A stretch of DNA of 53,699 nt from Bacteroidales bacterium (GCA_036752345.1 DAIOSV010000004.1:1-53699), one strand, 5' to 3'; shown: positions 3,561 through 43,323, counted from the stretch's first letter. The notes: generated by a model from the letters alone, not told the origin. Translations and numbers: made by a program.

Positions 3561-4772
3561 ATGGAACAAATGTCGGAATGGTTTTCTTTTGGAGAAGGTG
3601 CCCATTTACCTCAAGAAAAAATGGTTGAACTTGCTCATAAATCGCATCCTTTGGTTTTGGGACTTCCTGTGGAATTTGAATCGGATGAACGCCGTATAGC
3701 ATTGACACCGCAGGCAGTGAATGTTTTTGTGAATCAGGGTGTGGTGGTTTTGAAAGAGCGCGAGGCGGGTTCCAAGGCAAATTATTCTGATGCTGACTAC
3801 GCTGAAGCAGGAGCTACTATTTGTGCATCAAAAGAAGATGTGTATAAATGTGATGTATTGTTGAAAATTGGAACTATAACTGAACAAGAGCTTCCATTTA
3901 TTCACGACAAACAAATAATTTTTTCGACCATATCGTTTCAAAAACTCACAAAATCCATATTGAGCGCATTGGCGCGTAAACACGTTACGGCAATTGGCTA
4001 CGAATTTGTTCACGATGGGAATGAATATTATCCAATATTGCATTCGATGAACGAAATTTCTGGAACGCTTTCGGTACTTGTAGCTGCAGAGTGTTTAACA
4101 AATAATGAAGTTGGAAAAAGCGTCTTGCTTGGTGGTGTTACCGGTATAAGTCCGGCTGAAGTCGTCATATTTGGTGCTAACACTGCTGGTGAATTTGCGG
4201 CTCGTGCAGCTCTCGGGCTCGGTGCCGAAGTGAAATTGTTCGATTCGTGTATGCAACGATTAACTTCGGTGCAGCAGGTTTTATCGCAACGATTATTTAC
4301 TTCAAATTACCATGAAAAAGTGCTCCGTAAGGCGTTACTCTCTGCCGATGTGGTGATAGGTGCAATTTGTCTTGAATCCAGTGACCAATATATGGTAGTG
4401 GAGGACATGGTAAAAAGCATGAAGCGTGGGGCTATAATCGTTGATTTGTGCATGAATCAAGGTGGTTGTTTTGAAACATCAAGGCCTACAACCTTTGAAA
4501 ATCCTACGTTTGTAAAATACAATGTCGTTCATTATTGCGTTCCAAATTTAGCTTCAAAAGCTGCTCGCACAGCTTCTATAGCGTTGAGCAATATTCTAAT
4601 GCCAATGGTGCAAAATGTTTTAAATAGTGGAGCGTTTTATACTTTCTTAAAGCAGAACTTATATGCTCGCCGTGGTGTGTACATGTACAATGGCATTATT
4701 ACTAATGACAATGTAGCACGCGTCTATGGCTTGAACAGTAAAAGCATTGATTTGCTTTTGGCGGCTTTTTAA
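3561..4772 (+). CDS. alanine dehydrogenase / PNT-alpha family NAD-dependent dehydrogenase
   Basis: 403 aa. It has an RIALTPQAV N-terminal motif and the Rossmann segment VVIFGANTAGEFAARAALGLGAEVKLFD, typical of the AlaDH/PNT family. It has an ATG start. Confidence 0.75.
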   Translation: MEQMSEWFSFGEGAHLPQEKMVELAHKSHPLVLGLPVEFESDERRIALTPQAVNVFVNQGVVVLKEREAGSKANYSDADYAEAGATICASKEDVYKCDVLLKIGTITEQELPFIHDKQIIFSTISFQKLTKSILSALARKHVTAIGYEFVHDGNEYYPILHSMNEISGTLSVLVAAECLTNNEVGKSVLLGGVTGISPAEVVIFGANTAGEFAARAALGLGAEVKLFDSCMQRLTSVQQVLSQRLFTSNYHEKVLRKALLSADVVIGAICLESSDQYMVVEDMVKSMKRGAIIVDLCMNQGGCFETSRPTTFENPTFVKYNVVHYCVPNLASKAARTASIALSNILMPMVQNVLNSGAFYTFLKQNLYARRGVYMYNGIITNDNVARVYGLNSKSIDLLLAAF

Positions 4773-12844: not shown

Positions 12845-14194
12845 CTATTTTACCAATTCTTCTAATTTATTGGCAACAAAATTGAATGGAAATTCATTGT
12901 AAATCTTGTCGAATTTTGTTTTGATTTTGTCGTTGCAAAGATTGCCAATGCTTCCTTCGTGCGTATGGTTCGCTTTTCTTTCTGCTTTGAATTCGCCATG
13001 TTTTATGTCGAGACCAACTTTTTTGTACGCATCGCGGAATGGCATTCCTTCATACGTCAATCGATTTACTTCGTCAACACTGAAAATGTAGTCGTACATT
13101 GAATCGTCAAGAATGTGCTCCGAAATTTTTATGTTGTTCAACATCAACATCATCATGTCTATGCAGCTATGCACTTCGGTAAAGCCCGGTATGATGCATT
13201 CTTTGATGATTTGCAAATCGCGGTTGTATCCAAATGGCAAATTGGTGGTGATAAACGTGATTTCGGTTGGCAATGCTTGCAATTTGTTCGATTTGGCACG
13301 AATAATTTCAAACACATCAGGATTCTTTTTGTGAGGCATAATGCTTGAACCTGTTGTGAGTTCTTCGGGGAACGAAACGAAATGGAAGTTTTGGTTCATA
13401 AACAAACACATTTCCATTGCCATTTTTGAAAGGGTAGAAGCGATGCTTGCTAGAGCGTAACTTACAATTTTTTCAACCTTACCGCGTCCCATTTGCGCGT
13501 ACATCACGTTGTAGTTCATTGATTCAAATCCCAACAATTCGGTAGTCATAGTGCGGTTTAGTGGGAACGACGAGCCGTAGCCTGCGGCAGAGCCAAGTGG
13601 GTTTTGGTTCGCAATTTTATATGCAGCCAAAAGCAGTTGTAAATCATCGGCAAGGCTTTCGGCATAGCAACCAAACCACAATCCGAACGACGATGGCATG
13701 GCTATTTGTAAATGCGTATAACCCGGCATAAGCACGTTTTTGTACTTTTCGCTGAGGTTTTGCAAAAGCGTAAACAATTCTTTTACACTGCCCGAAGTTT
13801 CTTCAATTGCATCACGAAGATACAATTTCATATCGAGCAACACTTGGTCGTTGCGTGAGCGTCCGCTGTGGATTTTCTTTCCAACGTCGCCAAGTTTTTC
13901 GGTCAACAAAAATTCTACTTGTGAGTGAACATCTTCCACATGGTCTTCAATGACAAATTTCCCTTCCTGTACTGCTTTGTAGATGTTTTTCAACTCTGCT
14001 TGTACTTGGTTAAGTTCGTCTTTTGTCAACAAACCGATTGACTCCAACATGCGTGTGTGAGCCAAATTGCCAAGCACATCGGCTTTTGCCAAATACACAT
14101 CAAATTCTTTGTCTTTGCCAACGGTGAAAGTTGAAACTTTTTCGTTAGGCGTTACATCTTTTTGCCAAAGCGTGTTAGAATGATTTTTTGCCAT
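12845..14194 (-). CDS. argH: argininosuccinate lyase
   Basis: 449 aa with the fumarate-lyase signature region (GSSIMPHKKNP) and SGRSRNDQV. Its start overlaps the argE-like stop by 1 nt (TAATG). Confidence 0.93.
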   Translation of the reverse strand: MAKNHSNTLWQKDVTPNEKVSTFTVGKDKEFDVYLAKADVLGNLAHTRMLESIGLLTKDELNQVQAELKNIYKAVQEGKFVIEDHVEDVHSQVEFLLTEKLGDVGKKIHSGRSRNDQVLLDMKLYLRDAIEETSGSVKELFTLLQNLSEKYKNVLMPGYTHLQIAMPSSFGLWFGCYAESLADDLQLLLAAYKIANQNPLGSAAGYGSSFPLNRTMTTELLGFESMNYNVMYAQMGRGKVEKIVSYALASIASTLSKMAMEMCLFMNQNFHFVSFPEELTTGSSIMPHKKNPDVFEIIRAKSNKLQALPTEITFITTNLPFGYNRDLQIIKECIIPGFTEVHSCIDMMMLMLNNIKISEHILDDSMYDYIFSVDEVNRLTYEGMPFRDAYKKVGLDIKHGEFKAERKANHTHEGSIGNLCNDKIKTKFDKIYNEFPFNFVANKLEELVK

Positions 14195-15264
14195 TATATC
14201 TTCAAATTTTCAAGTAATTCAATATATGTTTCTATTCCTTGTTTCAGTTCCGATTCAAGGATGTATTCATTTGCGGTGTGCGAGCGCATAGTGTCGCCCG
14301 GACCAACTTTTACTGATGGGAATCCCGACATAAATACTTGATCGGAGAGTGTTTCCGAACCAAAAATTTTGAGTCCAAGTTTTTGTCCGCTTTTTACGAT
14401 TGGATGGTCACATGGAATTGACGAAGAATTGAGTCTAAACGAACGAGCTGTAACTTCTGATTGTACTGATTTCTTAATAATTTCATATACCTCATGGTTC
14501 GTATAGTTTTCGTTGATTCTTACATCAACTACAAAGGTGCATTCGCCGGGAATTACGTTGTGTTGTGTACCCGCGTTTATGCACGTTACGTTCATAGAAA
14601 CGTCACCCAAAAACTCGGAATGTTTTGGGAACGTATATGTTTTAAACCACTCAATGTCTTGCATGGCTTTGTAAATGGCATTGATGCCGTTGTGGTGTGC
14701 TGCATGACCTGATTTTCCAATAGCTTTGCAGTCGAGTACTAGCAATCCTTTTTCGGCAATAGCCATTGCCATTCCGGTAGGTTCGCCAACAATGCCGAAT
14801 GAAATTTCTTCCAGTGTTGGAATTACACATTCTAAGCCATTTTTGCCCGAAACTTCTTCCTCGGCTGAGGCAACAAAAATCAGGTTGAACGGATTGTTTT
14901 CTTTTTCGTTGAAATAAAGAAATGTAAAAATGAGCGAAACTAGTGGCGCACCAGCGTCATTACTGCCTAGCCCGATAATTTTGCCTTTGTCACTAATTGC
15001 ATTAAACGGATCGGTAAGCCATCCATCGGCAGGTTTCACCGTGTCGTGATGAGAGTTAAGCAAAATTGTAGGTTTGGTTTTGTCAAAATTTTTGGAACGA
15101 ACAATTACATTGTTTTCAATACGTTGCGCTTCTATGTTGTGGTTTTTGAAAAACGCCACAAGCAGTTCGGCAGTGCCCGATTCGTTTCTACTCACCGAGA
15201 ATGTTTCAATCAATGAAACGAGTAGCTCTTTTGCTTGTTCAAATTGTTCTGTCTGAAGTTCCAT
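14194..15264 (-). CDS. M20 family deacylase (ArgE-like acetylornithine deacetylase / succinyl-intermediate desuccinylase)
   Basis: It has M20 metal-binding motifs (LNSHHDTV, ASAEEE). I moved the start to the ATG at 15264 (MELQTEQF), because the ORF-track start at 15339 would overlap the S4-domain gene by 68 nt. It is coupled to argH. Confidence 0.8.
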   Translation of the reverse strand: MELQTEQFEQAKELLVSLIETFSVSRNESGTAELLVAFFKNHNIEAQRIENNVIVRSKNFDKTKPTILLNSHHDTVKPADGWLTDPFNAISDKGKIIGLGSNDAGAPLVSLIFTFLYFNEKENNPFNLIFVASAEEEVSGKNGLECVIPTLEEISFGIVGEPTGMAMAIAEKGLLVLDCKAIGKSGHAAHHNGINAIYKAMQDIEWFKTYTFPKHSEFLGDVSMNVTCINAGTQHNVIPGECTFVVDVRINENYTNHEVYEIIKKSVQSEVTARSFRLNSSSIPCDHPIVKSGQKLGLKIFGSETLSDQVFMSGFPSVKVGPGDTMRSHTANEYILESELKQGIETYIELLENLKI

Positions 15265-15271
15265 GTGTTTT

Positions 15272-15658
15272 CTATAAATAACCAAATTCTTCAAGAGAGC
15301 GGCGGTCTTTCTTGGTAGGACGCCCGGTACCTTTGTCACGATATACGGTAAATACCATTTTTACATCTTCAAGCTTTTGCAACTCCGATTGTGGGGTTAA
15401 ATCTTTTATAAAATCAGCAACTACCTTTGCCGATTCTCGTTGTGCCAATAATCCCACAACTTGGTATGAACGAACAATTGGTGGGCGTTTTACGTGTACC
15501 ACGTCGTTGATTTTTACAATGTGTGAGGGTTTTACAGACATGCCGTCAATGGACACCTGGTTGTTTTTGCAGGCAGTAGTAGCCAAACTGCGCGTCTTGT
15601 AGAGTCGCACAGCCCATAACCATTTGTCTATTCGTAAATTTTCCTCAGTTTTTGGCAT
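15272..15658 (-). CDS. hslR: S4-domain RNA-binding protein (Hsp15-like)
   Basis: 128 aa with the S4 motif KWLWAVRLYKTRSLATTACKNNQVSIDG. Confidence 0.8.
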   Translation of the reverse strand: MPKTEENLRIDKWLWAVRLYKTRSLATTACKNNQVSIDGMSVKPSHIVKINDVVHVKRPPIVRSYQVVGLLAQRESAKVVADFIKDLTPQSELQKLEDVKMVFTVYRDKGTGRPTKKDRRSLEEFGYL

Positions 15659-15660
15659 TG

Positions 15661-16245
15661 CTACAAATCAATAAAGTTTTTTAGTATTTGCGCACCTACG
15701 GCACCACTTTTTTCGGGGTGAAATTGGAACGCAAAAAAATTATCTTTCTCAATACCTGCACTGAAATCAAGTACATAGTTACAGGTAGCAGTTGAATGCG
15801 AATTCATTTCGGCATAATAGCTGTGAACAAAATACACATAGCTTTCAGGCGTAATGTTTTTAAGCAATGACCCTTGTAAGTTGCTAATTGTATTCCAACC
15901 CATGTGCGGTATTTTTTCTTTTCCCGAAGGAAACCGTTTTACGTTCACATCAAAAATGCCTAAACAGTCAACATCACCTTCTTCGGAGTGTTTGCACATA
16001 AGTTGCATGCCAAAGCAAATCCCTAAAAATGGTTGCTTGAGCGAAACAAGCACTTCGTCAAGATGACGCTCGCGCAAATAGGGCATTGCCGTTCCTGCGT
16101 CGCCAACGCCGGGAAATATAATTTTGTCAGCTTTGTACAATACTTCAGGGTCGTTTGTTACTACGGGTTCTATGCCTAGCCGATTGAGAGCGTAACTCAC
16201 TGATTGAATGTTTCCTGCGTTGTATTTTACTATTGCTACTTGCAT
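15661..16245 (-). CDS. hisH: imidazole glycerol phosphate synthase glutamine amidotransferase subunit
   Basis: 194 aa class I GATase. The catalytic Cys lies in LGICFGMQL and the His/Glu in FQFHPEKS. Confidence 0.9.
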   Translation of the reverse strand: MQVAIVKYNAGNIQSVSYALNRLGIEPVVTNDPEVLYKADKIIFPGVGDAGTAMPYLRERHLDEVLVSLKQPFLGICFGMQLMCKHSEEGDVDCLGIFDVNVKRFPSGKEKIPHMGWNTISNLQGSLLKNITPESYVYFVHSYYAEMNSHSTATCNYVLDFSAGIEKDNFFAFQFHPEKSGAVGAQILKNFIDL

Positions 16246-16264
16246 ATTATTTTTTTATATGTTA

Positions 16265-16272
16265 CAAATGTA
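16265..16272 (-). promoter_or_regulatory. candidate Bacteroidota -7 box (TACATTTG) for the hisH-led array
   Basis: The minus strand reads TACATTTG, matching TAnnTTTG, about 19 nt upstream of the hisH ATG. Confidence 0.3.
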
Positions 16273-16407
16273 GTAAAGTTTGCGTATTGCAAAAAGGTTT
16301 CGAGCCTTCGTTTTGTTTTTTTCGAGATTCTGCACTGAAAATTGGTAAAGACTAAAAAAGTTTCTTGAAAAATCCGTATTTTCGTAGAGTTTGAATCCAT
16401 TCGATAC

Positions 16408-19400
16408 ATGTACGCTATCTTACAAAAAGTAATAGAAATTGGGCAAAGTGGGAAATCTATTCACATTATGCTTCCTGAAATATGCAATAGCATATCAAAT
16501 TTCCCCGATGTCCTTGGTGTCCTTATTTCATACAAAGATGTGAATTACTACAGTTCGCGTTTTTCAATTAGTGGACGTGTGCAAAATAAAGAACTGAAAA
16601 TCGGCAACCAAAATATTGGCGGATTGTCAATATATTACAAGGAGCAGTCGGAGTTTAAAATGATTTCCGATGACGATTTGTTTTATACGGCAACGGTGAT
16701 TTCGGGTTTCATTTCCGAGAATAAGTTGGTTGATATTACTTCTGAATATGAGCAGCGCAAACGAGAACTTGATGCAATAAAAGAGGTAAAAAGTATTATA
16801 AATACCGGGTTACCATTGGATGAATTGTTGCAACACTTGTGTGATACCTTGCCAAAATACTGGCAGTATGCTGATATTGCTTGTTGTAGAATTATTTTTG
16901 ATGATTTGACATACACCTCACATGGTTTTAAAGAGTCGCAATGGGTGATGAAAGATTCATTCGTGACGTTTGACAACACAACCGGAACCATTGAGATATT
17001 CTACACGCAAGATATTAGTTCAGAAAATATGTCAGTGTTTACGAAAGGTGAACGTGATACCGCAAACACAGTAGGTATTTTAATCAGTCGCTATATTAAT
17101 GATGTTAAAGGCCGGTTGCTGTCTAATAACCCTATTTTGAACGCCAATCCGACTAGCAAGGAAGGAATTCCGCGCGAATCGCTCATAAACAGTGATCAAC
17201 CATTGCAGAAATTACTCAACGAGCAAACGTTGGATAAGTACATTTATCTTGACATGATGAAACACAAGGTTTCTCAAATCTTGTTCGTTGCCACAATGTA
17301 TGATGCGTTCAATCTTGAAAAAGATGATAGCTTTTTTGAGAAATTCATGGGACCAATTTATCAGTATAGCATATTCACATTGCCAAGAATTATCGGCGTC
17401 TCGTCACCCGAACAGGCAATTGAGTTGCTTAAAACCACACATTTCGATTTAATTGTCTTGATGGTTGGTGCTGATGTGCAAAAACCGTTGAAGTTCAGTG
17501 CCGAAATTAAAAAGTTTACAAATGAAGTTCCAGTCTATCTTTTGCTCAATCAACAATCAAATATTGCCTATTTTCAAGATTTGGTAGTCAAAACCACATT
17601 GTTTAACAAAATATTTATGTGGAATGGCGATTCGCAGATTTTCTTTGCTATGGTTAAATCGCTTGAAGATTTGGCAAATGTTGAGAACGATACCAAGATA
17701 GGACTTGTTCGTACTATGCTGCTCATAGAAGATTCTGTGCAATATTACTCTAAATATTTGCCGGTAATTTTCTCCGTATTGTTCAACCAAGTAGGTGAGC
17801 AGATAGCCGATTTTGAACTGAACGAGTTGGAAAAATTGTCAAAAATCCGTTCTCGGCCGAAACTTTTGTGGGCGCGAAATTATGAAGAGGCTGCATTTTT
17901 GTTCAACAAATACAAGGATTTTATGACTTGTGTGATTTCCGACATGGAGTTTGAACGCAATGGAAAACTCGATAAAGAAGCCGGTCTTTTGTTTCTTGAC
18001 CATGTGCGAGAGTACAATAAAAACTTGCCGGTGCTTATGCAGTCGTCGGATCTGAACTATTCAATGTCGGCACGCAAATTCAACGCAACGTTTATCAATA
18101 AAAAGTCCGACAACTTGCTCGAAAAAATCAAAAAATTCGTGATGCATAATTTCGGATATGGTGATTTTGTGTTCCGTAATGGTAAAGGAGAAACAATAGC
18201 AAAAGCTCGAAATTTGCGCGAGTTTGAAACATTGCTCCGCATCATTCCTGATGATTCTTTGAAATACCATGCCGACCAAAATCAATTTTCCGTATGGCTC
18301 ATGGGTCGTGGCGAGATTGAATTGGCTCGCAAACTGAATCCTATAAAGTTATCTGATTTAGGAAACGACGTATCGGAATTGCGTCGTATGAATAATGTGA
18401 TTCTTGATGAATATCGTCAGACAAAAAAACGAGGGAAAATTTTAACGTTTGAGGAAACAGCAGTACTTGATGAAAAAAATGTAGTCACATTGGCACCAGG
18501 TTCGTTGGGAGGAAAAGGTCGAGGATTGGCATTCGTTAATACGTTGATAAACAACATAAATTTGAATCCATACGCCGACCGCATTGCTATTCGTACGCCA
18601 AAGACTGCAATTATTGGGACAAATGAGTTTGAAGTTTTCATAAAACAAAATTTTGCCAAAAAGAATCTCTTTGCAAAAGATTTGTCAGATGATCGCATCA
18701 AGGAGATGTTTATTGCAGCACGCCTTTCCGAAGACTTACGAAAGAAATTGGCTACGTTGCTAGAGCAGGTTTCAAAACCGTTGGCAGTTCGTTCGTCAAG
18801 TATATTTGAGGATTCCGTAACACAGCCTTTGGCGGGAGTTTTTAGTACTTATATCATTCCTAACAACGACACTGACCTTGGCAAACGATTGAGTGATTTG
18901 GAAGTGGCTATCAAATTGATTTATGCGTCGGTGTATGGCGAACAAGTCAAAGAATTTTATAAGTCAACCAATCACAAGCTTGAAGAAGAAAAAATGGCCA
19001 TTGTGATTCAGGAAGTTGTGGGCGACTATTACGACAATTATTATTATCCGCACATTAGTGGCGTTGCACAGTCATATAACTATTATCCGATAGCGCATAT
19101 GAAGCCCGAAGAAGGTTTCTCGGTATGTGCGGTAGGGCTTGGTTTTTACATAGTTGATGGAGGACGGGCGTATCGTTTTTCACCGCATTATCCAAAGGTG
19201 GACATTTTAAGCACAAAAGATCAGATAAATTCGTCGCAGACAGATTACTATGCCGTAGATTTTACCAAGAAAGACATAAACTACAAACGCGATGGAGAGC
19301 GTGCAGCATTGTCGTTGCTCCCAATTTCAGAAGCCGAAAAACACAAGACTTTAGCCCATTGTGCTTCGGTGTACAATATTCAAAATGATAGAATTGAACC

Positions 19401-20172
19401 AGGACTTTCAGCCGTAGGCCCACGTATTATCAACTTTGCCGATATTTTGAAGTATGATTACACACCGTTGGCTGAGGTGCTTTCTCTTATGCTAAGAACC
19501 GTGGAAGAAGCAATGGGTACTCCTGTGGAAATAGAGTTTGCCGTTGATTTGAACGAAAATAAAGATGGTGTTCCTTCATTCTATTTGCTTCAAATAAAAC
19601 CACTTACCGGAAGTTTGCTTACCGAGAATTCGTTACCGCAAGAATTTGTAAATGCATCTAAATTGCTGAACACAACATCGTGTATGGGTAATGGATTTAT
19701 AGAAAATATAAGTGATGTCGTGTTTGTAGACCTTGAGAAATTTGACAAACTACGCACGCTCGAAATGGTTGCGGAGATTGAAAAAATCAACAAAACGATG
19801 GTAGAGCAAGGTAAGAAATATATACTGATAGGGCCCGGACGATGGGGAACAAGCGATAGATTCCTAGGCATTCCTGTGCTTTGGTCGCAAATTTCCAATG
19901 CCAAAGTGATAGTTGAAATTAGTCTTTCGAATTTCCCACTCGATGCTTCGTTGGGATCGCACTTTTTCCATAACGTCTCAACTATGAATATTGGCTATTT
20001 TGCAATAGAAAATACCAATGAAGATAATTATATCAATTGGGATATTCTAAAACAACAAACTGTGGTAGAGACAACAGACTATTTTGTTCATGTGCGTTTT
20101 GATAAAAATCTTTTCGTGCATATGCAAGGTAAAGAGCGCACAGCATCAATTTATGTACAAGAAACTGAATAA
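16408..20172 (+). CDS. multidomain signalling protein: sensor-like N-terminus, two receiver-like modules, PPDK_N-type (PEP/pyruvate-binding, ATP-grasp) domain, uncharacterised C-terminal domain
   Basis: 1254 aa. The PPDK_N signatures are GGKGRGLAF, VRSSSIFEDS, AGVFSTY, MAIVIQEVV and VEIEFAV. A receiver-like module carries LLIEDS / CVISDMEF / LMQSSD / FINKKS, and an earlier degenerate receiver-like module contains FDLIVLMVGAD. I could not find a PEP-utilising TIM-barrel domain. Confidence 0.75.
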   Translation: MYAILQKVIEIGQSGKSIHIMLPEICNSISNFPDVLGVLISYKDVNYYSSRFSISGRVQNKELKIGNQNIGGLSIYYKEQSEFKMISDDDLFYTATVISGFISENKLVDITSEYEQRKRELDAIKEVKSIINTGLPLDELLQHLCDTLPKYWQYADIACCRIIFDDLTYTSHGFKESQWVMKDSFVTFDNTTGTIEIFYTQDISSENMSVFTKGERDTANTVGILISRYINDVKGRLLSNNPILNANPTSKEGIPRESLINSDQPLQKLLNEQTLDKYIYLDMMKHKVSQILFVATMYDAFNLEKDDSFFEKFMGPIYQYSIFTLPRIIGVSSPEQAIELLKTTHFDLIVLMVGADVQKPLKFSAEIKKFTNEVPVYLLLNQQSNIAYFQDLVVKTTLFNKIFMWNGDSQIFFAMVKSLEDLANVENDTKIGLVRTMLLIEDSVQYYSKYLPVIFSVLFNQVGEQIADFELNELEKLSKIRSRPKLLWARNYEEAAFLFNKYKDFMTCVISDMEFERNGKLDKEAGLLFLDHVREYNKNLPVLMQSSDLNYSMSARKFNATFINKKSDNLLEKIKKFVMHNFGYGDFVFRNGKGETIAKARNLREFETLLRIIPDDSLKYHADQNQFSVWLMGRGEIELARKLNPIKLSDLGNDVSELRRMNNVILDEYRQTKKRGKILTFEETAVLDEKNVVTLAPGSLGGKGRGLAFVNTLINNINLNPYADRIAIRTPKTAIIGTNEFEVFIKQNFAKKNLFAKDLSDDRIKEMFIAARLSEDLRKKLATLLEQVSKPLAVRSSSIFEDSVTQPLAGVFSTYIIPNNDTDLGKRLSDLEVAIKLIYASVYGEQVKEFYKSTNHKLEEEKMAIVIQEVVGDYYDNYYYPHISGVAQSYNYYPIAHMKPEEGFSVCAVGLGFYIVDGGRAYRFSPHYPKVDILSTKDQINSSQTDYYAVDFTKKDINYKRDGERAALSLLPISEAEKHKTLAHCASVYNIQNDRIEPGLSAVGPRIINFADILKYDYTPLAEVLSLMLRTVEEAMGTPVEIEFAVDLNENKDGVPSFYLLQIKPLTGSLLTENSLPQEFVNASKLLNTTSCMGNGFIENISDVVFVDLEKFDKLRTLEMVAEIEKINKTMVEQGKKYILIGPGRWGTSDRFLGIPVLWSQISNAKVIVEISLSNFPLDASLGSHFFHNVSTMNIGYFAIENTNEDNYINWDILKQQTVVETTDYFVHVRFDKNLFVHMQGKERTASIYVQETE

Positions 20173-20175
20173 GCT

Positions 20176-20829
20176 ATGATAAATGTAATTGTAATCGGAA
20201 TCCACCACCTTCATGCAGAGAGTATGGCTATGTTGATTGAATCAAATAGCGAATTTAAAGTACTTGATGTTCTTTCTCACGCCTCTGACTTGCTGCGCAA
20301 GACGTATGATGAGCCGGTGCATGTAATTGTGAAAAATATTCCCAAAATTACGACAGACGATATTGCCGATGTGCAGGATATTCAACGCATATACACCAAA
20401 GCAAAGGTTTTGATTATTTCGTATTCAGAAAACGAAGACACTATTTTTAATATCATAAAAGTAGGAGCTAAAGGATTCCTTTCGCACGATGCCACGCGTC
20501 AAGATTTGTTTGAGGCAATTTATTCGCTGCGCAATGGATATGATTATTTCAGTAAATGTATCACCAACATTTTGCTTAATCGGTACGTGTCGTCGATTCA
20601 AAATCATGAAAAACCCGAAAATGATCAAGTAGAGGAATTGAGTTCTCGTGAAATTGAAATTCTTTCGTTGTGGGGAAAAAGTCTGACTAATTCTGAAATT
20701 GCCGACACCCTGCACATAAGCATTCGTACCGTAGAAACGCATAAAACACATATTATGCAAAAACTCAATCTCAAGACGCAAGTTGATTTGATAAAATATG
20801 CCATACGCAACAATATAATTGATTTGTAA
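20176..20829 (+). CDS. LuxR/NarL-family transcription regulator with a degenerate (pseudo-)receiver domain
   Basis: 217 aa. The C-terminal LuxR HTH is LSSREIEILSLWGKSLTNSEIADTLHISIRTVETHKTHIMQKL. The N-terminal receiver fold is present, but the acidic pocket, phospho-Asp and Lys positions are substituted. It starts 3 nt after the upstream stop codon. Confidence 0.85.
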   Translation: MINVIVIGIHHLHAESMAMLIESNSEFKVLDVLSHASDLLRKTYDEPVHVIVKNIPKITTDDIADVQDIQRIYTKAKVLIISYSENEDTIFNIIKVGAKGFLSHDATRQDLFEAIYSLRNGYDYFSKCITNILLNRYVSSIQNHEKPENDQVEELSSREIEILSLWGKSLTNSEIADTLHISIRTVETHKTHIMQKLNLKTQVDLIKYAIRNNIIDL

Positions 20830-20852
20830 CACAGTTGATTCCGTAACATCTT

Positions 20853-22346
20853 ATGAAATACGACATAGCTATAGTAGGTAGTGGATTGGGTGGGCTCGTT
20901 TGTGGCTATGTGCTTGCCAAAAACGGGTTTAAAGTCGTTATACTAGAGAAAAATTCACAAATAGGAGGGTGCTTACAAACGTTTAAGCGCAACGGTGTGA
21001 AATTTGACACGGGCATGCACTATATAGGAAGCATGGAAGAAGGGCAGATACTACACAGGTTTTGGAAGTATCTTGGCTTGCTCAACAATGTGCCCTTGCA
21101 ACGCCTAAACCTTGATGCCTTTGATGTTGTTGACCTTAATGGTACCAAGTATAAATTTGCTTCAGGATTTGAAAATTTTCAAGAAACGCTTTCGCAACAA
21201 TTCCCACAAAATCATCGTGATATAGAGGAGTATGTACGTCGTGTGCGTGAAATTGCATCATCATCGCCATTGTATAATTTACGAAAAATTAACCTCAATG
21301 TTTTTATTGAGCCAGACTACATTAAAACGAGCATAAATGATTTTATAGCTTCAATTACAGCAAATCCTACATTACAAAATGTGTTGGCAGGAAACCTTCC
21401 TCTCTATGCAGGAGTGAAAAATGTTACTCCAACCTATATCCATGCGCTCATTACCAATTTCTACATACAAAGTGCATATAGAATAGTAGGAGGCAGTGAC
21501 CAGATAGCAAAATCGTTAGCTAGTTCAATCAAACAATTTGGAGGAGATATCTTTACCAATGCTGAGGTTGACAAGTTTCTTTGCAACGATACGTGTATGA
21601 CGGCTGTTCAACTAACTAATGGTGAGGTCATTGAAGCAAAGAATTTTGTATCGAACATTCATCCGCAAGTTGCTGTTTCAAAAATTGATTCCTCTCTTTT
21701 ACGTCGTGCGTATCGTGAGAGAATTGGAAATTTGCAAAATACTATATCGAATTTTACGGTCTATATTAAGTTCAAAGAAAATACTACACCGTATCTCAAC
21801 TATAATTATTTCTATTACAAGAATGCCGATGTGTGGGCCGGTAACGATTACAATGAAAACACTTGGCCTGAGCAGTATTTATACATGCATCAATGCCACG
21901 CGCCAAATTCTACATATGCACAAAGTGCCGAACTTATAGGGTATATGCGTTACGATGAGGTTGCACGCTGGGCAGGAACAACTGTTGGACACCGCGGTTC
22001 CGAATACGAACAATTCAAAGAAGAAAAAGCACAACGAATGTTACAAGCGTTGGAACATCAGTTTCCCGGCATAAATCGTTGTATAGAGGCCTATAGTACC
22101 TCAAGTCCGCTTACATATCAAGACTATACTGCAACATTTCAGGGTTCAATGTATGGCATAGTGCGCGACAAAAATTTCCCGACTCAAACGCTTATATCTC
22201 AACGAACTAAAATATCTAATTTCTTTATGACCGGTCAAAATATCAATTCGCATGGCATTTTGGGCGTGACAATAGGGGCAATTCTCACATGTGCCGAATT
22301 TTTAGGACTGAATACCGTTATTGATAAATTTGCAGAAGAAGAATAA
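20853..22346 (+). CDS. FAD-dependent oxidoreductase of the phytoene desaturase (CrtI-like) family
   Basis: 497 aa. The N-terminal dinucleotide-binding motif is DIAIVGSGLGGLVCGYVLAKNGFKVVILEKNSQIGG. Length and C-terminal pattern are typical of CrtI-like amine-oxidase-fold enzymes. Confidence 0.75.
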   Translation: MKYDIAIVGSGLGGLVCGYVLAKNGFKVVILEKNSQIGGCLQTFKRNGVKFDTGMHYIGSMEEGQILHRFWKYLGLLNNVPLQRLNLDAFDVVDLNGTKYKFASGFENFQETLSQQFPQNHRDIEEYVRRVREIASSSPLYNLRKINLNVFIEPDYIKTSINDFIASITANPTLQNVLAGNLPLYAGVKNVTPTYIHALITNFYIQSAYRIVGGSDQIAKSLASSIKQFGGDIFTNAEVDKFLCNDTCMTAVQLTNGEVIEAKNFVSNIHPQVAVSKIDSSLLRRAYRERIGNLQNTISNFTVYIKFKENTTPYLNYNYFYYKNADVWAGNDYNENTWPEQYLYMHQCHAPNSTYAQSAELIGYMRYDEVARWAGTTVGHRGSEYEQFKEEKAQRMLQALEHQFPGINRCIEAYSTSSPLTYQDYTATFQGSMYGIVRDKNFPTQTLISQRTKISNFFMTGQNINSHGILGVTIGAILTCAEFLGLNTVIDKFAEEE

Positions 22347-22368
22347 TGGGCGAAAAGTTGTTCTTTAA

Positions 22369-23826
22369 TTATTTCTTCCAGAAGTCTGGTAAAAATAAGA
22401 TTAAGACGGTGAATATTTCCAAACGGCCAATATACATTGATAATGCCATTACGTATTTGGAAACATCTGGAAATGATGCAAAGCAAGATATCATGCCTTC
22501 GGGTGTGAATCCCATTCCTCCGTTACCTATAGAGAGAGCAACAGCTGAACATGATGTGTAGAAGTCATGTCCCATAATCGAGAGTAGGAAAGATCCAAGC
22601 AAAAAAATGGCAATGTACATTACAACGAATGCATATACGTTTGAAATTACTTTAGTGCCAAGAGGCTTTTTACTTAAACGGAGAGTAAGTACACCATTGG
22701 GGTGAAGAATTTGTTTGAGTGCCAAATAACTATTTTTTATCAAAATATTTATTCGCACCACCTTAATAGCACCACTTGTAGAACCAGCACATGCTCCAAT
22801 AAATGTAAGAATGAAAAATAACATTTTTGTCGCAAATGGCATGATACCATAGTCACATGACGAAAACCCAGTTGTCGTTATGAAAGACACAACAAGGAAC
22901 AATATATTTCGAAGTTGTTGTTCTGCATCAGCAAACGATTGGCATGTAGAAAAGTGTTCCCAAATATTTATTCCGAAAATACTCAAAGTAAAAATAACGA
23001 TTAGTAAAATGTATGTTTTCAATTCTTCATCTTGTGTAAGATATCGAAACTTGCCACGTGCTCCCATATATAGTAACACGAAGTTTACACCCGAAATGAA
23101 CATAAAAAAGATCACCACGTATTGTGCGTATGGCGATGCACTTGCCAAACCATCGTTGTAGTTCCAAAACCCGCCGGAAGAAATAGTACATTGTGCAAGA
23201 ACCAACGCATCCAAGAAATTCATACCGCCAATCTTGAGTAGAGCAACTTCGAGCGCAGTGCACGCTATGTAAGTTAAGTATAGTCGGCTGGCTGTATCTT
23301 TTATGCGTGGGTGAATTTTATCTTTGGTAGGTCCCGTTACTTCTGCATTGTAGAGTTGGGTCCCTCCAATGCCCATCATAGGAATAATGGCAACGGTGAG
23401 AACTATGATACCCATACCACCAACCCATTGCATTTGGCCGCGCCAAAGTAAAATGTGTTTTGGTAATATTTCAACATTAGGAATAATTGTAGCTCCGGTA
23501 GTTGTATATCCTGACATTGCCTCAAAAAAACCATCGGCGAATGAAGAAAGACTATGAGAGAAGAGGAATGGCAGAGCTCCTATTATTGAGAAGATGAGCC
23601 AAACGGTTCCAACTATAAAATATCCTTCGCGGCGTCCTATGTTTTTTGATGCTTTGCGAAACGAAAAAGCCATAGCAAGACCAATTGCAGTGGTAATTCC
23701 TATCGCCAATAGTAGGCCGTCCATGTTTTCTGAATAGACCACGGCAGGAATGATACAACAAGCCATAAGTATGGCTTCTAGTAGTATTAAGATCCCAATG
23801 GTTCGTATGACAATTTTCCAATTCAT
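22369..23826 (-). CDS. trkH: TrkH family potassium uptake protein
   Basis: 485 aa polytopic membrane protein with repeated MPM-type segments (GYTTTGAT, SSGGF, TTTGFSS, NGGMGF selectivity-filter-like glycines). Confidence 0.9.
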   Translation of the reverse strand: MNWKIVIRTIGILILLEAILMACCIIPAVVYSENMDGLLLAIGITTAIGLAMAFSFRKASKNIGRREGYFIVGTVWLIFSIIGALPFLFSHSLSSFADGFFEAMSGYTTTGATIIPNVEILPKHILLWRGQMQWVGGMGIIVLTVAIIPMMGIGGTQLYNAEVTGPTKDKIHPRIKDTASRLYLTYIACTALEVALLKIGGMNFLDALVLAQCTISSGGFWNYNDGLASASPYAQYVVIFFMFISGVNFVLLYMGARGKFRYLTQDEELKTYILLIVIFTLSIFGINIWEHFSTCQSFADAEQQLRNILFLVVSFITTTGFSSCDYGIMPFATKMLFFILTFIGACAGSTSGAIKVVRINILIKNSYLALKQILHPNGVLTLRLSKKPLGTKVISNVYAFVVMYIAIFLLGSFLLSIMGHDFYTSCSAVALSIGNGGMGFTPEGMISCFASFPDVSKYVMALSMYIGRLEIFTVLILFLPDFWKK

Positions 23827-26709: not shown

Positions 26710-27261
26710 TTATTTAAAATATCTATTGAATAATCCTTGAAAACCTTGTCCGTGACGAGCTTCGTCTTTTGCCATTTCGTGAACAGTGTCATGAATAGCA
26801 TCAAGATTTTGTGCTTTTGCATTTTTGGCAATTCTCATTTTGTCGGCGCAAGCACCTGACTCTGCCATCATGCGTTTTTCAAGATTCGTTTTGGTATCCC
26901 AAACCACATCTCCTAACAATTCGGCAAATTTAGCTGCATGTTCGGCTTCCTCGAACGCATATCGTTTGAAAGCTTCTGCAATTTCAGGATAGCCTTCGCG
27001 GTCAGCTTGGCGGCTCATTGCTAAGTACATGCCAATTTCTGAGCATTCGCCATTGAAATGAGCAGACAAATCTTTTTTCATTTCGGCATCGCAGTCTTTT
27101 GCTATTCCTATAACGTGTTCTGTAGCAAATGACAAACCAGCTGATTCGTCAACAGGTTTCCATGTCACTTTTTGTTTACATTGAGGACAGTGTTCAGGAA
27201 GGTTGTTCTCGTCGCCTTCATATACGAACCCACAAACGGGGCATACAAATTTTTTCTTCAT
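26710..27261 (-). CDS. reverse rubrerythrin (N-terminal rubredoxin-like CxxC pairs plus ferritin-like di-iron domain)
   Basis: 183 aa. CPVCGFVY...CPQCKQ lies at the N-terminus, followed by ExxH di-iron motifs ([18 protein letters not shown]). Confidence 0.85.
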
Positions 27262-27280
27262 ATCGTGGTTGTTCTTAATG

Positions 27281-27820
27281 TTAATAATTATCTGGTCTTA
27301 CTTGGAAATATGCTTGTGGGTGTTCGCACACGGGACAAATATCAGGAGCGTTTTTGCCAATTACAAGGTGGCCGCAATTTGAACATTGCCAAATCATATC
27401 TTTGTCTTTACTGAAAACGAGTCCGCCTTCTATATTTGACAATAGTTTAAGAAAACGTTCTTCATGTTCTTTTTCAATTTTAGCTACGCCTTCGAATAAT
27501 GTGGCAATATCTTTGAACCCTTCTTCGTGAGCTTCTTCTGCGAAGTTTGCGTACATATCTGTCCATTCATAGTTTTCACCAGCGGCAGCATCTTTTAAAT
27601 TCGTAATAGTATCAGCTACTTTTCCACCGTGAAGCAATTTGAACCATATTTTTGCGTGTTCTTTTTCGTTGTTAGCTGTTTCTTCAAATAGATTTCCTAT
27701 TTGTACAAAACCATCTTTTTTTGCTTTTGAGGCGTAGTATGAGTATTTATTACGTGCTTGTGATTCACCTGCAAATGCTGCTTGCAAGTTTTTTTCTGTT
27801 TTTGAGCCTTTTAATTCCAT
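27281..27820 (-). CDS. rbr: rubrerythrin (classical order: di-iron domain then C-terminal rubredoxin-like domain)
   Basis: 179 aa. It has NEKEHAKIW and IEKEHEERF ExxH motifs and a C-terminal CSNCG...CPVCEHP. Confidence 0.92.
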
Positions 27821-27844
27821 ATGCTGTATATTTTTACATTTTTA

Positions 27845-28468
27845 TTATAACGAAATTTTTTCAAAATCGGCAACGCCATGTTTGCAAACGGGGCATATAA
27901 AGTCAGGAGGAAGTTCTTCTCCTTCGTAAATGTAGCCACAAATTCTGCATCGCCAACCAACTTTCCCCGTGTTTTTAGTTGCGGGCGAACTTTGTTGTGG
28001 TTTTATGTGTTTATGGTAGTACGAGTACGTGAGTGTTTCGTCTGATGATAAAACTTCTGCCTCCGTCACTTCTGCAATGAAAAGTGTGTGTGTGCCTAAG
28101 TCAATCATTGACGTAACCGAACCCGACAAAAATGCATTACTATATTCCGAAAGATAGAGAACACCATTGGCAGAACGTTTCGCCGAGTCAAACCCAATGA
28201 ATTTGTCAGCTGTTTTGCCTGATTGAAATCCAAATCTTTCTATAACAGAAAATGGTGTAGATTGTGTAAGTACCGAGACATTGAATTTTCCCGATGCTTT
28301 AATCATATCGTGCGTTCGGTTTGCTTTATTTATAGCTACCGTAATTTGTAACGGACTACTGGTAACTTGCTGTACTGTATTCACAATACACGCATTGTCA
28401 TCGCCATCGTTGTTGGCCGACAATGCGTATACGCCATATGCTATTGAAAATAAAGCCTTTGAATTCAT
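27845..28468 (-). CDS. flavin reductase-like domain fused to C-terminal rubredoxin (high-molecular-weight rubredoxin, Hrb-like)
   Basis: 207 aa. The N-terminal FMN-binding split-barrel pattern is YGVYALSANNDGDDNACIVNTV. The C-terminal motif is WRCRICGYIYEGEELPPDFICPVCKH. Confidence 0.8.
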   Translation of the reverse strand: MNSKALFSIAYGVYALSANNDGDDNACIVNTVQQVTSSPLQITVAINKANRTHDMIKASGKFNVSVLTQSTPFSVIERFGFQSGKTADKFIGFDSAKRSANGVLYLSEYSNAFLSGSVTSMIDLGTHTLFIAEVTEAEVLSSDETLTYSYYHKHIKPQQSSPATKNTGKVGWRCRICGYIYEGEELPPDFICPVCKHGVADFEKISL

Positions 28469-30060: not shown

Positions 30061-30092
30061 AAGGCTGTTGGACACATACAACAGCCTTTTTT
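30061..30092 (+). terminator. rho-independent terminator after the SPFH gene
   Basis: A perfect 10-bp stem AAGGCTGTTG (30061-30070) / CAACAGCCTT (30079-30088) with an 8-nt loop is followed by TTTTTT. Confidence 0.8.
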
Positions 30093-30097
30093 ATACT

Positions 30098-31069
30098 ATG
30101 GATTACAAAAGTATACTTAACACTACGGAACCAAAAGCAATAATGGTGGTAGGCGACATTATGCTTGATTCCTATTTATGGGGAAATGTTGATAGAATTT
30201 CACCTGAGGCCCCTGTGCCGGTAGTTCTGGTAGATTCTGTAGAAGACCGCTTGGGCGGAGCTGCAAATGTGGTGAAAAACTTTATTTCGCTTGGCATGCG
30301 TCCGTTTGTGTGTAGCGTAGTAGGCGATGACGAGGCTGGTCATACGTTCCTTAAAATACTCCAAACATTGGGTGTTGATTCTAAATACTGTGTAGTTGAC
30401 CAAAATAGGAAAACAACCATAAAAAAGCGTGTTATTTGCGGAAAACAGCAAATGTTGCGTATTGATAGCGAGCAGATTGACGAAATACGTGAAGACGTAC
30501 GCAAAAAGTTGGAGGAAAATGTACGTAAAGGCATAGAAGAAGAAAATATCGCTGCAATTGTTCTTGAAGACTATGACAAAGGAGTTTTTTCGGCAGAATT
30601 AATTCAAATTATCGTAAATGAGGCAAAAGCGAAGTCTATTCCGGTTTTAGTTGATCCTAAAAAACGGAATTTTACCAACTATAAAAACGTGACACTTTTC
30701 AAACCAAACTTCAAAGAATTTACAGAAGGATTAGGTAAATCGTGTTCAAAATATGATAATGATGCGTTGTTTTCTCTTGCAAAAGAATTTATGCAGAAGC
30801 AAAGCATTGACATTATGATGATTACACTATCGGAATTGGGAATATTCGTAGCCGATAAAGATGCGTATGTTCATATACCAACGCAAGTGCGCCACGTTGC
30901 CGACGTTTCAGGTGCAGGAGACACGGTTATAAGCGTTGCTACCGTGTGCTATATTTTAGGCTTCCCGATAGCAGAAATAGCTCGAATATCAAATATTGCG
31001 GGAGGTCTTGTCTGCGAGCAACCCGGAGTAGTAACAGTAGAAAAAGAACAATTAATACAAAAAATATAA
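30098..31069 (+). CDS. PfkB-family sugar kinase, RfaE domain I-like (D-glycero-beta-D-manno-heptose-7-phosphate kinase)
   Basis: 323 aa, from the ATG at 30098. The ORF-track TTG at 30068 lies inside the terminator hairpin. It has the RfaE-type N-terminus IMVVGDIMLDSYLWGNVDRISPEAPVPVV and a C-terminal DVSGAGDT PfkB motif. Confidence 0.8.
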   Translation: MDYKSILNTTEPKAIMVVGDIMLDSYLWGNVDRISPEAPVPVVLVDSVEDRLGGAANVVKNFISLGMRPFVCSVVGDDEAGHTFLKILQTLGVDSKYCVVDQNRKTTIKKRVICGKQQMLRIDSEQIDEIREDVRKKLEENVRKGIEEENIAAIVLEDYDKGVFSAELIQIIVNEAKAKSIPVLVDPKKRNFTNYKNVTLFKPNFKEFTEGLGKSCSKYDNDALFSLAKEFMQKQSIDIMMITLSELGIFVADKDAYVHIPTQVRHVADVSGAGDTVISVATVCYILGFPIAEIARISNIAGGLVCEQPGVVTVEKEQLIQKI

Positions 31070-32232
31070 TGGCTTCAATTTTAATTGTTGACGATGAACG
31101 TGCCATTCGTAATTCAATGAAAGAAATTCTTGAATACGAATCATACAAAGTTGACGTTGCGGAAAATGGAGTAGAAGCTTTGCAGAAAGTGCAAAACGAA
31201 AAATACGACCTCATTTTTTCTGACATCAAAATGCCTGAAATGGATGGGATTGCTTTTCTCGAAGCAGTTATGAAAGAGCGCGGTGATGTTCCCGTTATTA
31301 TGATATCGGGCCATGCAGAAATTGATATCGCCGTAAAGTCTATAAAAATTGGAGCGTACGATTTTATTTCCAAGCCACTTGATATGAACCGTTTATTAGT
31401 AACGGTGCGCAATGCCTTGGATAAGAAAAAACTTGTGCAAGAAACTACAATGCTGAAGAAGAAAATTGGTTCAAAGTACCAAATGATAGGCAATTCTCCA
31501 GCATTGAAGAAAATAAATGAAATAATAACAAAAGTAGCTCCAACTGATGCTCGTGTGCTCATAACCGGACAGAATGGCTCTGGTAAAGAATTGGTTGCTC
31601 ATGCGCTCCACGACCAAAGTAATCGTAAAAATGGACCATTTATAGAAGTAAATTGCGCTGCAATTCCTTCGGAACTTATTGAGAGTGAACTTTTTGGACA
31701 TGAAAAGGGAGCATTTACCTCGGCAGTAAAAACACGTATAGGTAAATTCGAACAAGCCGATGGAGGTACTTTATTTCTTGATGAAATAGGCGATATGAGC
31801 CTTTCTGCACAAGCAAAAGTGCTTCGAGCGTTACAAGAACAAAAAATAACTCGTGTAGGAAGCGAAAAAGATATTACGGTAGATGTACGTGTGCTTGCTG
31901 CTACTAACAAGAATATGAAAGAGGAGATAGACGCAAAACGTTTCCGTGAAGATTTATATCATAGATTGAGTGTAATTCTTATAAAAGTGCCTTCTCTCTC
32001 AGAGCGTATCGAAGATATACCGTTGCTTGCCGAACATTTTGTGATAGAAACGAGCAAAGAAATGGGTATCCCGAAAAAAGAAATTACACCAGGTGCCATA
32101 AAGAAATTACAAACATATTCTTGGACCGGAAATATTCGCGAGTTTAGAAATGTGATAGAACGGCTCGTAATTCTTAGTGGAAAAACTATTGAAGAGTCTG
32201 ATGTAGACCTCTATACGCAGCCACTTGGATAA
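31069..32232 (+). CDS. sigma-54-dependent response regulator (receiver plus AAA+), no C-terminal DNA-binding domain
   Basis: 387 aa, from the ATG at 31069, which overlaps the kinase TAA by 1 nt. The receiver has ILIVDDE / LIFSDIKMP / ISGH / KP. The AAA+ part has Walker A GQNGSGKE and Walker B LFLDEIG, and the sigma-54 contact loop reads GAFTSA. The protein ends 22 aa after the sensor-II region (REFRNVIERLVIL). Confidence 0.85.
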   Translation: MASILIVDDERAIRNSMKEILEYESYKVDVAENGVEALQKVQNEKYDLIFSDIKMPEMDGIAFLEAVMKERGDVPVIMISGHAEIDIAVKSIKIGAYDFISKPLDMNRLLVTVRNALDKKKLVQETTMLKKKIGSKYQMIGNSPALKKINEIITKVAPTDARVLITGQNGSGKELVAHALHDQSNRKNGPFIEVNCAAIPSELIESELFGHEKGAFTSAVKTRIGKFEQADGGTLFLDEIGDMSLSAQAKVLRALQEQKITRVGSEKDITVDVRVLAATNKNMKEEIDAKRFREDLYHRLSVILIKVPSLSERIEDIPLLAEHFVIETSKEMGIPKKEITPGAIKKLQTYSWTGNIREFRNVIERLVILSGKTIEESDVDLYTQPLG

Positions 32233-41982: not shown

Positions 41983-41985
41983 TTA

Positions 41986-42714: not shown

Positions 42715-42750
42715 TGGTGAAACACTGAGTATTAATTAAAAATAGAAGAG

Positions 42751-43287: not shown

Positions 43288-43323
43288 TAGTTTTATAATT
43301 GTGTTTTTTACTGAAGATAACCA

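Follow-up and report, generated by a model that had tools for sequence, protein, structure and literature searches.

In phosphoenolpyruvate (PEP) synthase and pyruvate phosphate dikinase (PPDK), an ATP-grasp domain of the PPDK_N type works together with a swivelling phosphohistidine domain and a PEP/pyruvate TIM barrel, and in every characterised PPDK_N enzyme known to us ATP is used to load a phosphoryl group on a histidine of the domain that follows. Enzyme I-Ntr (PtsP) combines an N-terminal GAF sensor with a phosphohistidine-forming phosphotransfer enzyme that reports nitrogen status. PleD-type response regulators place a double receiver in front of an enzymatic output domain, and atypical regulators such as actinomycete GlnR, VpsT and CsgD join a helix-turn-helix (HTH) domain to a receiver unable to use the canonical aspartate. 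We have analysed a 53,699-nt stretch of DNA from a Bacteroidales bacterium (GCA_036752345.1 DAIOSV010000004.1:1-53699), hereafter called the window, in which three plus-strand genes encode a 1254-aa giant protein with domains resembling parts of these systems, a 217-aa LuxR-type regulator and a 497-aa CrtI/CrtD-like FAD-dependent oxidoreductase.

The giant protein represents the short form, from gut and rumen Bacteroidales, of an uncharacterised and very large family of dikinase-like enzymes regulated by receivers. The core of this family consists of a pseudo-receiver, a receiver, a DUF5752-like module, a PPDK_N ATP-grasp domain and a family-specific C-terminal domain (CTD). The Bacteroidales branch has gained N-terminal GAF-like sensors and a dedicated NarL/LuxR-type partner with Asn at the phospho-site. 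The single window could not reveal the conserved context of the system, which is ammonium assimilation (gdhA, gltBD or nfnAB, and amtB) with a shared palindromic operator. Genomic association ties the family to this pathway, and the giant protein and its LuxR partner probably control nitrogen assimilation. Our preferred but tentative reading, to which we give a little less than an even chance, is that a GAF- and receiver-gated dikinase-like ATP-grasp enzyme and its aspartate-less LuxR partner control ammonium assimilation, the chemistry being predicted by analogy with known PPDK_N enzymes.

The likeness to PEP synthase and PPDK lies in the ATP-grasp domain, whose motifs align with those of Escherichia coli PpsA, and in a domain with an invariant histidine directly behind it; the giant protein differs in that it lacks PF00391 and PF02896, in that the CTD that follows is unrelated in sequence, and in that GAF-like modules and receivers stand in front. 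Rifampin phosphotransferase (RPH; PDB 5hv1/5hv3) and HpeI (9goj), which demonstrate that PPDK_N modules can be adapted to substrates besides pyruvate, are the best structural matches of the ATP-grasp half, whereas the rifampicin-binding and canonical C-terminal swivel-His domains of RPH are undetectable in the giant protein and the sequence similarity is marginal. In the way it works, the giant protein appears to resemble PleD-type response regulators most closely: its double receiver, one phosphorylatable and one an adaptor, is N-terminal to an enzymatic output. Unlike in PleD, however, the order is reversed with the pseudo-receiver in front, a dikinase-like ATP-grasp domain takes the place of GGDEF, extra GAF-like modules are present and no cognate kinase is known. 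With PtsP, a GAF sensor joined to a phosphotransfer enzyme for nitrogen status, the giant protein would share no more than the logic: PtsP draws on PEP by way of PEP-utilizer domains and a TIM barrel, has neither ATP-grasp domain nor receivers, and passes phosphate to NPr. The LuxR partner, whose NCBIfam matches include CsgD, resembles the atypical regulators in being a receiver–HTH protein unable to use the canonical Asp, and resembles GlnR in its predicted control of gdhA and amtB-type genes. GlnR is of the OmpR type, whereas the partner is of the NarL/LuxR type and translationally coupled to the giant sensor-enzyme, and both its DNA binding and its regulon are predicted.

Domain organization of the giant protein and its family

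Sequence searches have identified more than 770 close homologues of matching length, indicating that the giant gene is a real conserved gene. AlphaFold2 (AF2) models were built in two halves on 58-sequence alignments. In the model of residues 1–700 (mean predicted local distance difference test score, pLDDT, 79.5), a long helix connects two small alpha/beta modules; these are followed by a disordered linker, a pair of receiver folds and a further small alpha/beta module. Foldseek matches this half to the tandem GAFs of PDE2/5/6 and phytochromes (E 1e-5 to 1e-3) and to the double receivers of PleD and 3luf (E ~1e-6). Pfam finds no match over the first ~330 aa or the last ~200 aa, and no GAF match in the giant protein. 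The GAF-like modules are small (~100 aa, four strands in AF2) and follow the pattern LPxAWQYP...GxIEIFYLKEFP..GPFLKEER, which occurs three times in longer homologues (~1,530 aa) and as one clear and one degenerate copy in the window protein. The preliminary description, made from the sequence alone, had read the protein as a degenerate receiver, a second receiver with Asp, Ser and Lys, and a PPDK_N domain. Pfam, AF2, Foldseek and the homologue alignment agree with this reading, and all the peptide strings quoted for it are present in the translation.

The homologue alignment places A295, T296 and M352 at the catalytic positions of receiver 1, which therefore has neither an acidic pocket nor a phospho-Asp. 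The Pfam receiver score of the protein, 18.8 bits, falls on this domain and is under the gathering cut-off, which is reached in relatives. In receiver 2, by contrast with this degenerate set, E441, D442, D512, S546 and K565 are invariant in 57–58 of the 58 homologues. Receiver 2 is a canonical receiver, and phosphorylation of D512 is predicted from its residues and fold. The pseudo-receiver and the helix linking it to receiver 2 are more conserved than receiver 2 itself, with invariant residues such as Y298, D299, E311, R327, W405, K417, E420, D421 and T429. This conservation suggests a specific binding or docking role for the pseudo-receiver.

The C-terminal half is modelled with a pLDDT of 83.4 and a predicted template modelling score of 0.75 (residues 650–1254), and Foldseek matches it to RPH and HpeI (E 1e-13 to 1e-10) and to PPDK (E 1e-9), all through the ATP-grasp domain. 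The ATP-grasp motifs aligned with PpsA are GGK, VRSS..ED, Q, GLG, EIEFA and QxKP, and from the conservation of the catalytic motifs the domain looks active. In agreement with the preliminary description, which had found no TIM barrel, the Pfam scan of the giant protein shows no PF02896, and the protein ends 186 residues after the ATP-grasp domain. A PF00391 swivel is likewise missing from residues 1056–1254 even at E ≤ 0.5, and the NCBIfam equivalogs for PEP synthase, PigC/RedH and RPH give a best score of 45 bits against cut-offs of 598–1350. A complete PEP synthase or PPDK, which would have overturned the earlier interpretation, was rejected on the absence of both the swivel domain and the TIM barrel from the Pfam scan.

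The C-terminus that had been left unassigned at ~190 aa corresponds to the 185-aa CTD, which matches no Pfam family and has no sequence relative in the PDB. PDB sequence searches started from the protein alone, from a profile of the whole family and from one of the CTD, and returned only weak matches to the ATP-grasp domains of RPH and PEP synthase and none for the CTD; the matches of its GPGR loop to HIV gp120 are chance. H1185 is invariant in all 258 of 258 diverse CTDs and is the sole invariant histidine; the other invariant residues are W1146, G1147, G1154, P1156, S1181, G1183 and F1186. The motif loop is the least confident (low pLDDT) part of the AF2 model. A divergent or permuted swivel was considered on the basis of two by-eye alignments that looked plausible, but narrow and diverse CTD profiles compared with the PpsA and PtsI swivel domains gave hhalign probabilities below 1% and thus no support for this candidate.

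When the CTD profile was searched against 1.84 billion cluster representatives, ~1,980 clusters at 50% identity were found, 484 of them at E ≤ 1e-30. The CTD is almost always at the extreme C-terminus and directly follows PPDK_N in 8/8 diverse proteins scanned: PPDK_N and the CTD are one unit. The commonest architecture, of ~990 aa, is receiver-like, receiver, DUF5752-like, PPDK_N and CTD, and a profile of this form detects at least 5,816 proteins, from Ignavibacteria, Calditrichota, KSB1, Bacillota and one Asgard metagenome-assembled genome. Members of this wide family, as proteins or clusters, carry generic annotation names only. Three representatives of 1523–1654 aa (P0189, P0131 and P0172) have a rare tandem (PPDK_N–CTD)x2 arrangement with no Pfam receiver match, and P0189 additionally has a C-terminal nucleotidyltransferase domain (NTP_transf_2/Pol-beta-like). 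Literature searches yielded no characterised homologue of the giant protein, in line with the earlier statement that the architecture has no characterised member, and nothing on DUF5752, on proteins combining receivers with PPDK_N, or on such a nitrogen regulator in Bacteroidota.

Conserved gene neighbourhoods and the predicted operator

The partner carries a GerE/LuxR HTH domain at residues 154–209 (PF00196, E 6e-18), and its receiver is sub-threshold in Pfam (27.9 bits against a cut-off of 30.2). G8, I9 and N54 align with D13, D14 and D59 of NarL, and the phospho-site is Asn in 108 of 117 partner relatives and Asp in none. Since N54 stands in place of the phospho-Asp, the receiver cannot be phosphorylated at Asp, and the partner is classed as an aspartate-less atypical regulator, as the earlier reading of a phosphorylation-incompetent LuxR protein had it. 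The acidic pair of the pseudo-receiver is kept in most of the long-form clade of Bacteroidales loci. The recognition helix is near-identical in the long-form clade and in the short-form clade, to which the window belongs, except for a systematic change from HKN (long) to HKT (short) at a position that contacts bases in NarL.

A survey of 52 genome loci from Bacteroidales and Prolixibacteraceae has shown that the LuxR gene lies directly 3' of the giant gene in 48 of them, and two of the four exceptions are contig ends. The stop and start codons of the two genes often overlap or lie 3–4 nt apart. The 3-nt and 23-nt gaps reported earlier for the window are confirmed by the open reading frame (ORF) coordinates and junction sequences, the giant/LuxR junction reading GAA TAA gct ATG and the longer gap separating the LuxR and oxidoreductase genes. 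In a reverse look-up, three distant partner relatives each had a 1,411-aa PPDK_N gene upstream, overlapping by 4 nt, and gdhA 111 nt downstream. The giant and LuxR genes are thus a tightly conserved pair working as a unit.

The preliminary description had also proposed the FAD oxidoreductase as the output of a conserved three-gene operon. Its pairing of the giant and LuxR genes holds across the survey, but the third member does not: a CrtI-like gene follows the pair in only three loci (L001, L008 and L032), which are close relatives, so that it is not a conserved output, and this role was rejected on its absence after the pair in the other 49. A lack of conserved neighbourhood among the three genes was one of the refuting outcomes that the preliminary description itself had named. 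The encoded protein resembles the CrtI/CrtD family in its N-terminal FAD/NAD(P) Rossmann fold and an Amino_oxidase fold over the full length; however, it scores far below the NCBIfam cut-offs for the crtI family (TIGR02734, 78 against 238.1 bits), CrtD (115 against 549.7) and CrtISO (106 against 586.9). No predicted operator copy is found 5' of the gene. It is probably co-transcribed with the pair in the window, and it is a lineage-specific local passenger outside the conserved system.

Unbiased clustering of all neighbours at the 52 loci has identified glutamate dehydrogenase (PF02812 plus PF00208) after the LuxR gene in 33 loci, including 27 of the 31 long-form loci with enough flanking sequence. 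Genes for NfnA-like and GltD/NfnB-like reductases are directly 5' of the giant gene in 10–13 loci, GltB plus GltD are found in four, an ammonium transporter in four and ArgH in nine. The gene order of the Bacteroidales long-form clade is accordingly [nfnAB or gltBD]–giant–LuxR–gdhA. The wide family was sampled at 80 metagenome loci (GC content 28–69%), where the proteins have no GAF modules. There, gdhA is the only broadly recurrent neighbour: it is adjacent in 17 of the 38 loci for which both flanks could be read, and no more than 7 kb away in 44 of 80. In most cases it lies immediately 5' of the receiver–PPDK_N gene in the same orientation, at gaps of 32–440 bp. At L055, L057, L063 and L099, two or three glutamate dehydrogenase paralogues flank the receiver–PPDK_N gene on both sides. 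A canonical LuxR-type regulator is present at 6 of the 80 loci and the Asp-less partner at none. No kinase gene is conserved near giant-type genes across ~130 loci. Since the linkage to gdhA is found both in Bacteroidales and in the wide family, the primary cross-phylum link is that between the PPDK_N–CTD receiver protein and glutamate dehydrogenase or ammonium assimilation.

The LuxR–gdhA spacers share the palindrome TTACGTG-N3-CACGTAA, located 105–150 bp 5' of the gdhA start and ~40–60 bp 5' of a TAnnTTTG box. The palindrome TACGTG-N3-CACGTA precedes gdhA in ~30 of 31 loci, lies 79–97 bp 5' of nfnA in five loci and is found between gltB and the giant gene in L020. Perfect copies also occur in the spacers of three independent loci outside the motif derivation. 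The relaxed core TACG-N7-CGTA has 26 matches in 896 kb where ~11 are expected by chance, and 22–23 of the 26 are in gdhA, amtB or nfnA promoter regions. The palindrome is absent from the 80 wide-family loci and from L028, in which gdhA is present and the LuxR gene is missing. Three short-clade loci have TATACGA(A/G)AA...CGTAT 147–150 bp 5' of amtB, in which the outer core is shared and the inner bases differ, and this change of the inner half-site goes in step with the N-to-T change in the partner recognition helix. A de novo search for short-clade palindromes gave recurrent mixed-composition palindromes only inside the giant coding sequence. The distribution and variation of the operator fit the LuxR partner as the palindrome-binding protein, and from this co-occurrence the partner is predicted to bind it.

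Mechanistic readings and their alternatives

These observations lead to a plausible scheme for the action of the pair. A small-molecule signal on the GAF-like modules and phosphorylation of D512 by an unlinked kinase may jointly gate the ATP-grasp/CTD unit, which, by analogy with characterised PPDK_N enzymes, would use ATP to place a phosphoryl group on H1185. The aspartate-less LuxR partner would receive this state through modification or receiver–receiver contact, and would bind the TACG-N7-CGTA palindrome and control gdhA, nfnAB/gltBD and amtB. Its predicted target sites are TACGTGAAACACGTA and TACGA-N5-CGTA.

Several points weigh against this scheme. The whole biochemical mechanism is deduced from sequence and analogy. 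The CTD has no homology to phosphohistidine swivel domains that Pfam, hhalign or the PDB sequence searches can detect, so that the case for H1185 as the phospho-acceptor comes from its invariance and position. In the short-form clade of the window, gdhA is adjacent in none of 12 loci, and amtB is near, at ~6 kb, in three of the 12. The window itself has no match to the TACG-N7-CGTA core or to the short-clade version of the operator, and the two matches to the long-clade palindrome with up to two mismatches are both inside ORFs and at chance level. The 53.7-kb window also has no gdhA, gltB, amtB or nfnAB, and the nitrogen role at this locus is therefore extrapolated from relatives; the pair in the window is nevertheless intact, with its catalytic and receiver residues conserved, and its predicted targets would be outside the window. 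The palindrome could instead be the site of a different nitrogen regulator encoded elsewhere; its connection with the LuxR gene is a co-occurrence confounded by phylogeny. Finally, a DNA-binding partner is lacking in most of the wide family, where the enzyme must therefore have a non-transcriptional output.

This last point bears on the possibility that the giant protein is a post-translational controller of the GdhA protein, acting by phosphorylation, another modification or binding, and that the LuxR partner is a later transcriptional add-on of Bacteroidales. Comparable logic is found in the control of isocitrate dehydrogenase by AceK and of glutamine synthetase by GlnE, and the position of gdhA as sole recurrent, mostly co-directional upstream neighbour in the wide family, together with the loci at which gdh paralogues flank the gene, is in agreement with it. 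However, the Bacteroidales clade has clear transcriptional signatures in the partner HTH and the operator, gdhA is unlinked in the clade of the window, and we know of no PPDK_N enzyme that modifies a protein other than its own histidine domain; we regard GdhA control as unlikely, although it is a serious contender. The lack of a conserved kinase gene at the ~130 loci, the invariance of both H1185 and the phospho-acceptor residues of receiver 2, and the retention by the partner of a receiver fold and, in most of the long clade, of the acidic pair would also suit a self-contained phosphorelay, in which the ATP-grasp domain charges H1185 and H1185 charges D512 of the same protein in place of a histidine kinase, the phosphorylated receiver 2 then engaging the LuxR pseudo-receiver. 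Such a relay is decidedly unlikely: the tandem (PPDK_N–CTD)x2 proteins without a Pfam receiver match indicate that the unit needs no receiver as acceptor, a receiver N-terminal to an enzyme is the usual response-regulator order of input then output, and orphan receivers with distant kinases are common.

All characterised PPDK_N enzymes known to us finally phosphorylate a small molecule, such as pyruvate, rifampicin, glucan or phenols, and the giant protein might likewise be a dikinase or synthetase acting at the glutamate, 2-oxoglutarate or NADP(H) node, with a product that is metabolic or a ligand of the LuxR pseudo-receiver. Its structural matches to RPH, HpeI and PPDK and the linkage to NADPH-linked GdhA and NfnAB are consistent with this, but Pfam detects no substrate-binding counterpart of the TIM barrel or of the rifampicin-binding domain, and the 185-aa CTD would need to serve as both carrier and substrate site, making such an enzyme very unlikely in our judgement. 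The three-gene signalling operon of the preliminary description, with the CrtI-like oxidoreductase as its output, has been largely refuted by the neighbourhood survey and is highly improbable. The genes are on the same strand with no terminator-like site between them in the window, and L001, L008 and L032 share the arrangement; the oxidoreductase, however, is missing from nearly all surveyed loci, has no operator before it and has no thematic link to the conserved neighbours. The control of ammonium assimilation by the gated enzyme and its aspartate-less LuxR partner is therefore retained as the preferred reading at the tentative level given above.

Features of the window and significance

The positions of the genes, domains and the promoter-like element are collected in Table 1. 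The TATTTTCG box agrees with the Bacteroidetes-type -7 promoter element, whose consensus is TAnnTTTG, and the block GTATTTTCGTA is kept 5' of the giant gene in short-clade relatives despite differing upstream genes, so the box is a putative promoter of the giant gene. A scan of 15600–23000 for sigma-70 promoters and terminators gave no more than the shuffle expectation and is uninformative for Bacteroidetes promoters.

Table 1. Genes, protein domains and promoter-like element of the locus (window coordinates)
Feature	Position	Strand	Basis and details
TATTTTCG box, Bacteroidetes-type -7 promoter-like element	16377–16384	+	24 nt 5' of the giant-gene ATG
Giant gene, 1254 aa, sensor, double receiver and dikinase-like ATP-grasp	16408–20172	+	Homologues of 1250–1650 aa, query coverage 98–100%
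GAF-like module 1, degenerate, residues ~1–100	16408–16707	+	AF2 secondary structure; Foldseek tandem GAFs; alignment to LPxAWQYP...GPFLKEER repeat
GAF-like module 2, residues ~133–239	16804–17124	+	Alignment to long homologues; AF2; Foldseek
Receiver-fold domain 1 (pseudo-receiver), residues ~286–431	17263–17700	+	AF2; Foldseek, PleD-like; weak PF00072 and PF03709 matches
Receiver domain 2, full phospho-acceptor set, residues ~434–581	17707–18150	+	D512 codon 17941–17943
Small alpha/beta module, weak DUF5752 likeness, residues ~585–650	18160–18357	+	Sub-threshold PF19027 match, E 0.002, down to 3e-6 in relatives; AF2
PPDK_N-type ATP-grasp nucleotide-binding domain, residues 699–1068	18502–19611	+	Pfam PF01326 E 6e-35
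CTD, residues 1070–1254 (185 aa), GPGRWG loop and SxGxHFFxN motif	19615–20169	+	H1185 codon 19960–19962
Aspartate-less NarL/LuxR-type regulator, 217 aa	20176–20829	+	Pseudo-receiver 20176–20535; N54 codon 20335–20337; GerE HTH 20635–20802
CrtI/CrtD-like FAD-dependent oxidoreductase, 497 aa	20853–22346	+	Pfam Amino_oxidase and NAD_binding_8

The operon is flanked by genes for a radical-SAM/B12 protein, ArgH, an M20 peptidase, an S4/Hsp15-like protein and HisH, the last divergent from the giant gene. The oxidoreductase gene ends 22 nt from the convergent trkH, and TrkH, TrkA, MscS and rubrerythrin are encoded downstream. No histidine kinase is found among the scanned ORFs of the window, which comprise all operon neighbours and most ORFs of at least 200 aa, confirming that the operon contains none. 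Alanine dehydrogenase, ArgH, an M20 (ArgE-like) peptidase and HisH are encoded near the operon (3561–4772 and 12845–16245), and ArgH is within 8 kb of the giant gene in nine of the 52 loci, in both clades.

Farther away, an NtrC-type receiver and sigma-54 AAA+ activator is encoded at 30946–32232 (+) with no kinase gene seen adjoining; its 5' end overlaps a 333-aa TTG-start ORF (30068–31069), which leaves its start site uncertain. An aromatic amino-acid ammonia-lyase (PF00221), an SDR/FabG-type reductase and a beta-ketoacyl synthase follow in series at 40468–44544 (+), a row that resembles part of an aryl-polyene or flexirubin-type pigment cluster. Two large S8 subtilases are encoded at 5121–7607 (-) and 33848–36616 (-), the first with a type IX secretion C-terminal sorting domain. 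At 26710–28468 (-), the genes for rubrerythrin and for a flavin-reductase/rubredoxin-like fusion protein are found near each other; such small oxidative-stress pairs are typical of anaerobes.

A study of Prevotella ruminicola stated that the regulation of its ammonium-assimilation genes remained to be characterised (PMC5552732). The pair addresses this open question of transcriptional control in Bacteroidales by offering a candidate system for some Bacteroidales and Prolixibacteraceae lineages, consisting of a sensor-enzyme, a dedicated DNA-binding partner, and a predicted operator and regulon. Beyond these lineages, thousands of receiver proteins form a family that combines a dikinase-like output with an undescribed CTD and is genomically linked to glutamate dehydrogenase across phyla. 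It is a bold and rather unlikely proposition that PPDK_N–CTD is a third kind of phosphohistidine-generating signalling enzyme beside histidine kinases and enzyme I of the phosphotransferase system (PTS), in which an ATP-grasp "dikinase" would load H1185 on the undescribed domain and signal to its own receiver Asp, to the LuxR partner or to glutamate dehydrogenase. On this view it would be the master regulator of ammonium assimilation that has long been missing for parts of Bacteroidota and for several other phyla. The novelty of the system lies in a response regulator with a new output and in a dikinase ATP-grasp domain with a new partner domain, with a modest chance of a new kind of chemistry. 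If the chemistry is as proposed here, the family would give two-component signalling a new class of output and put the PPDK-type ATP-grasp domain to a new use.

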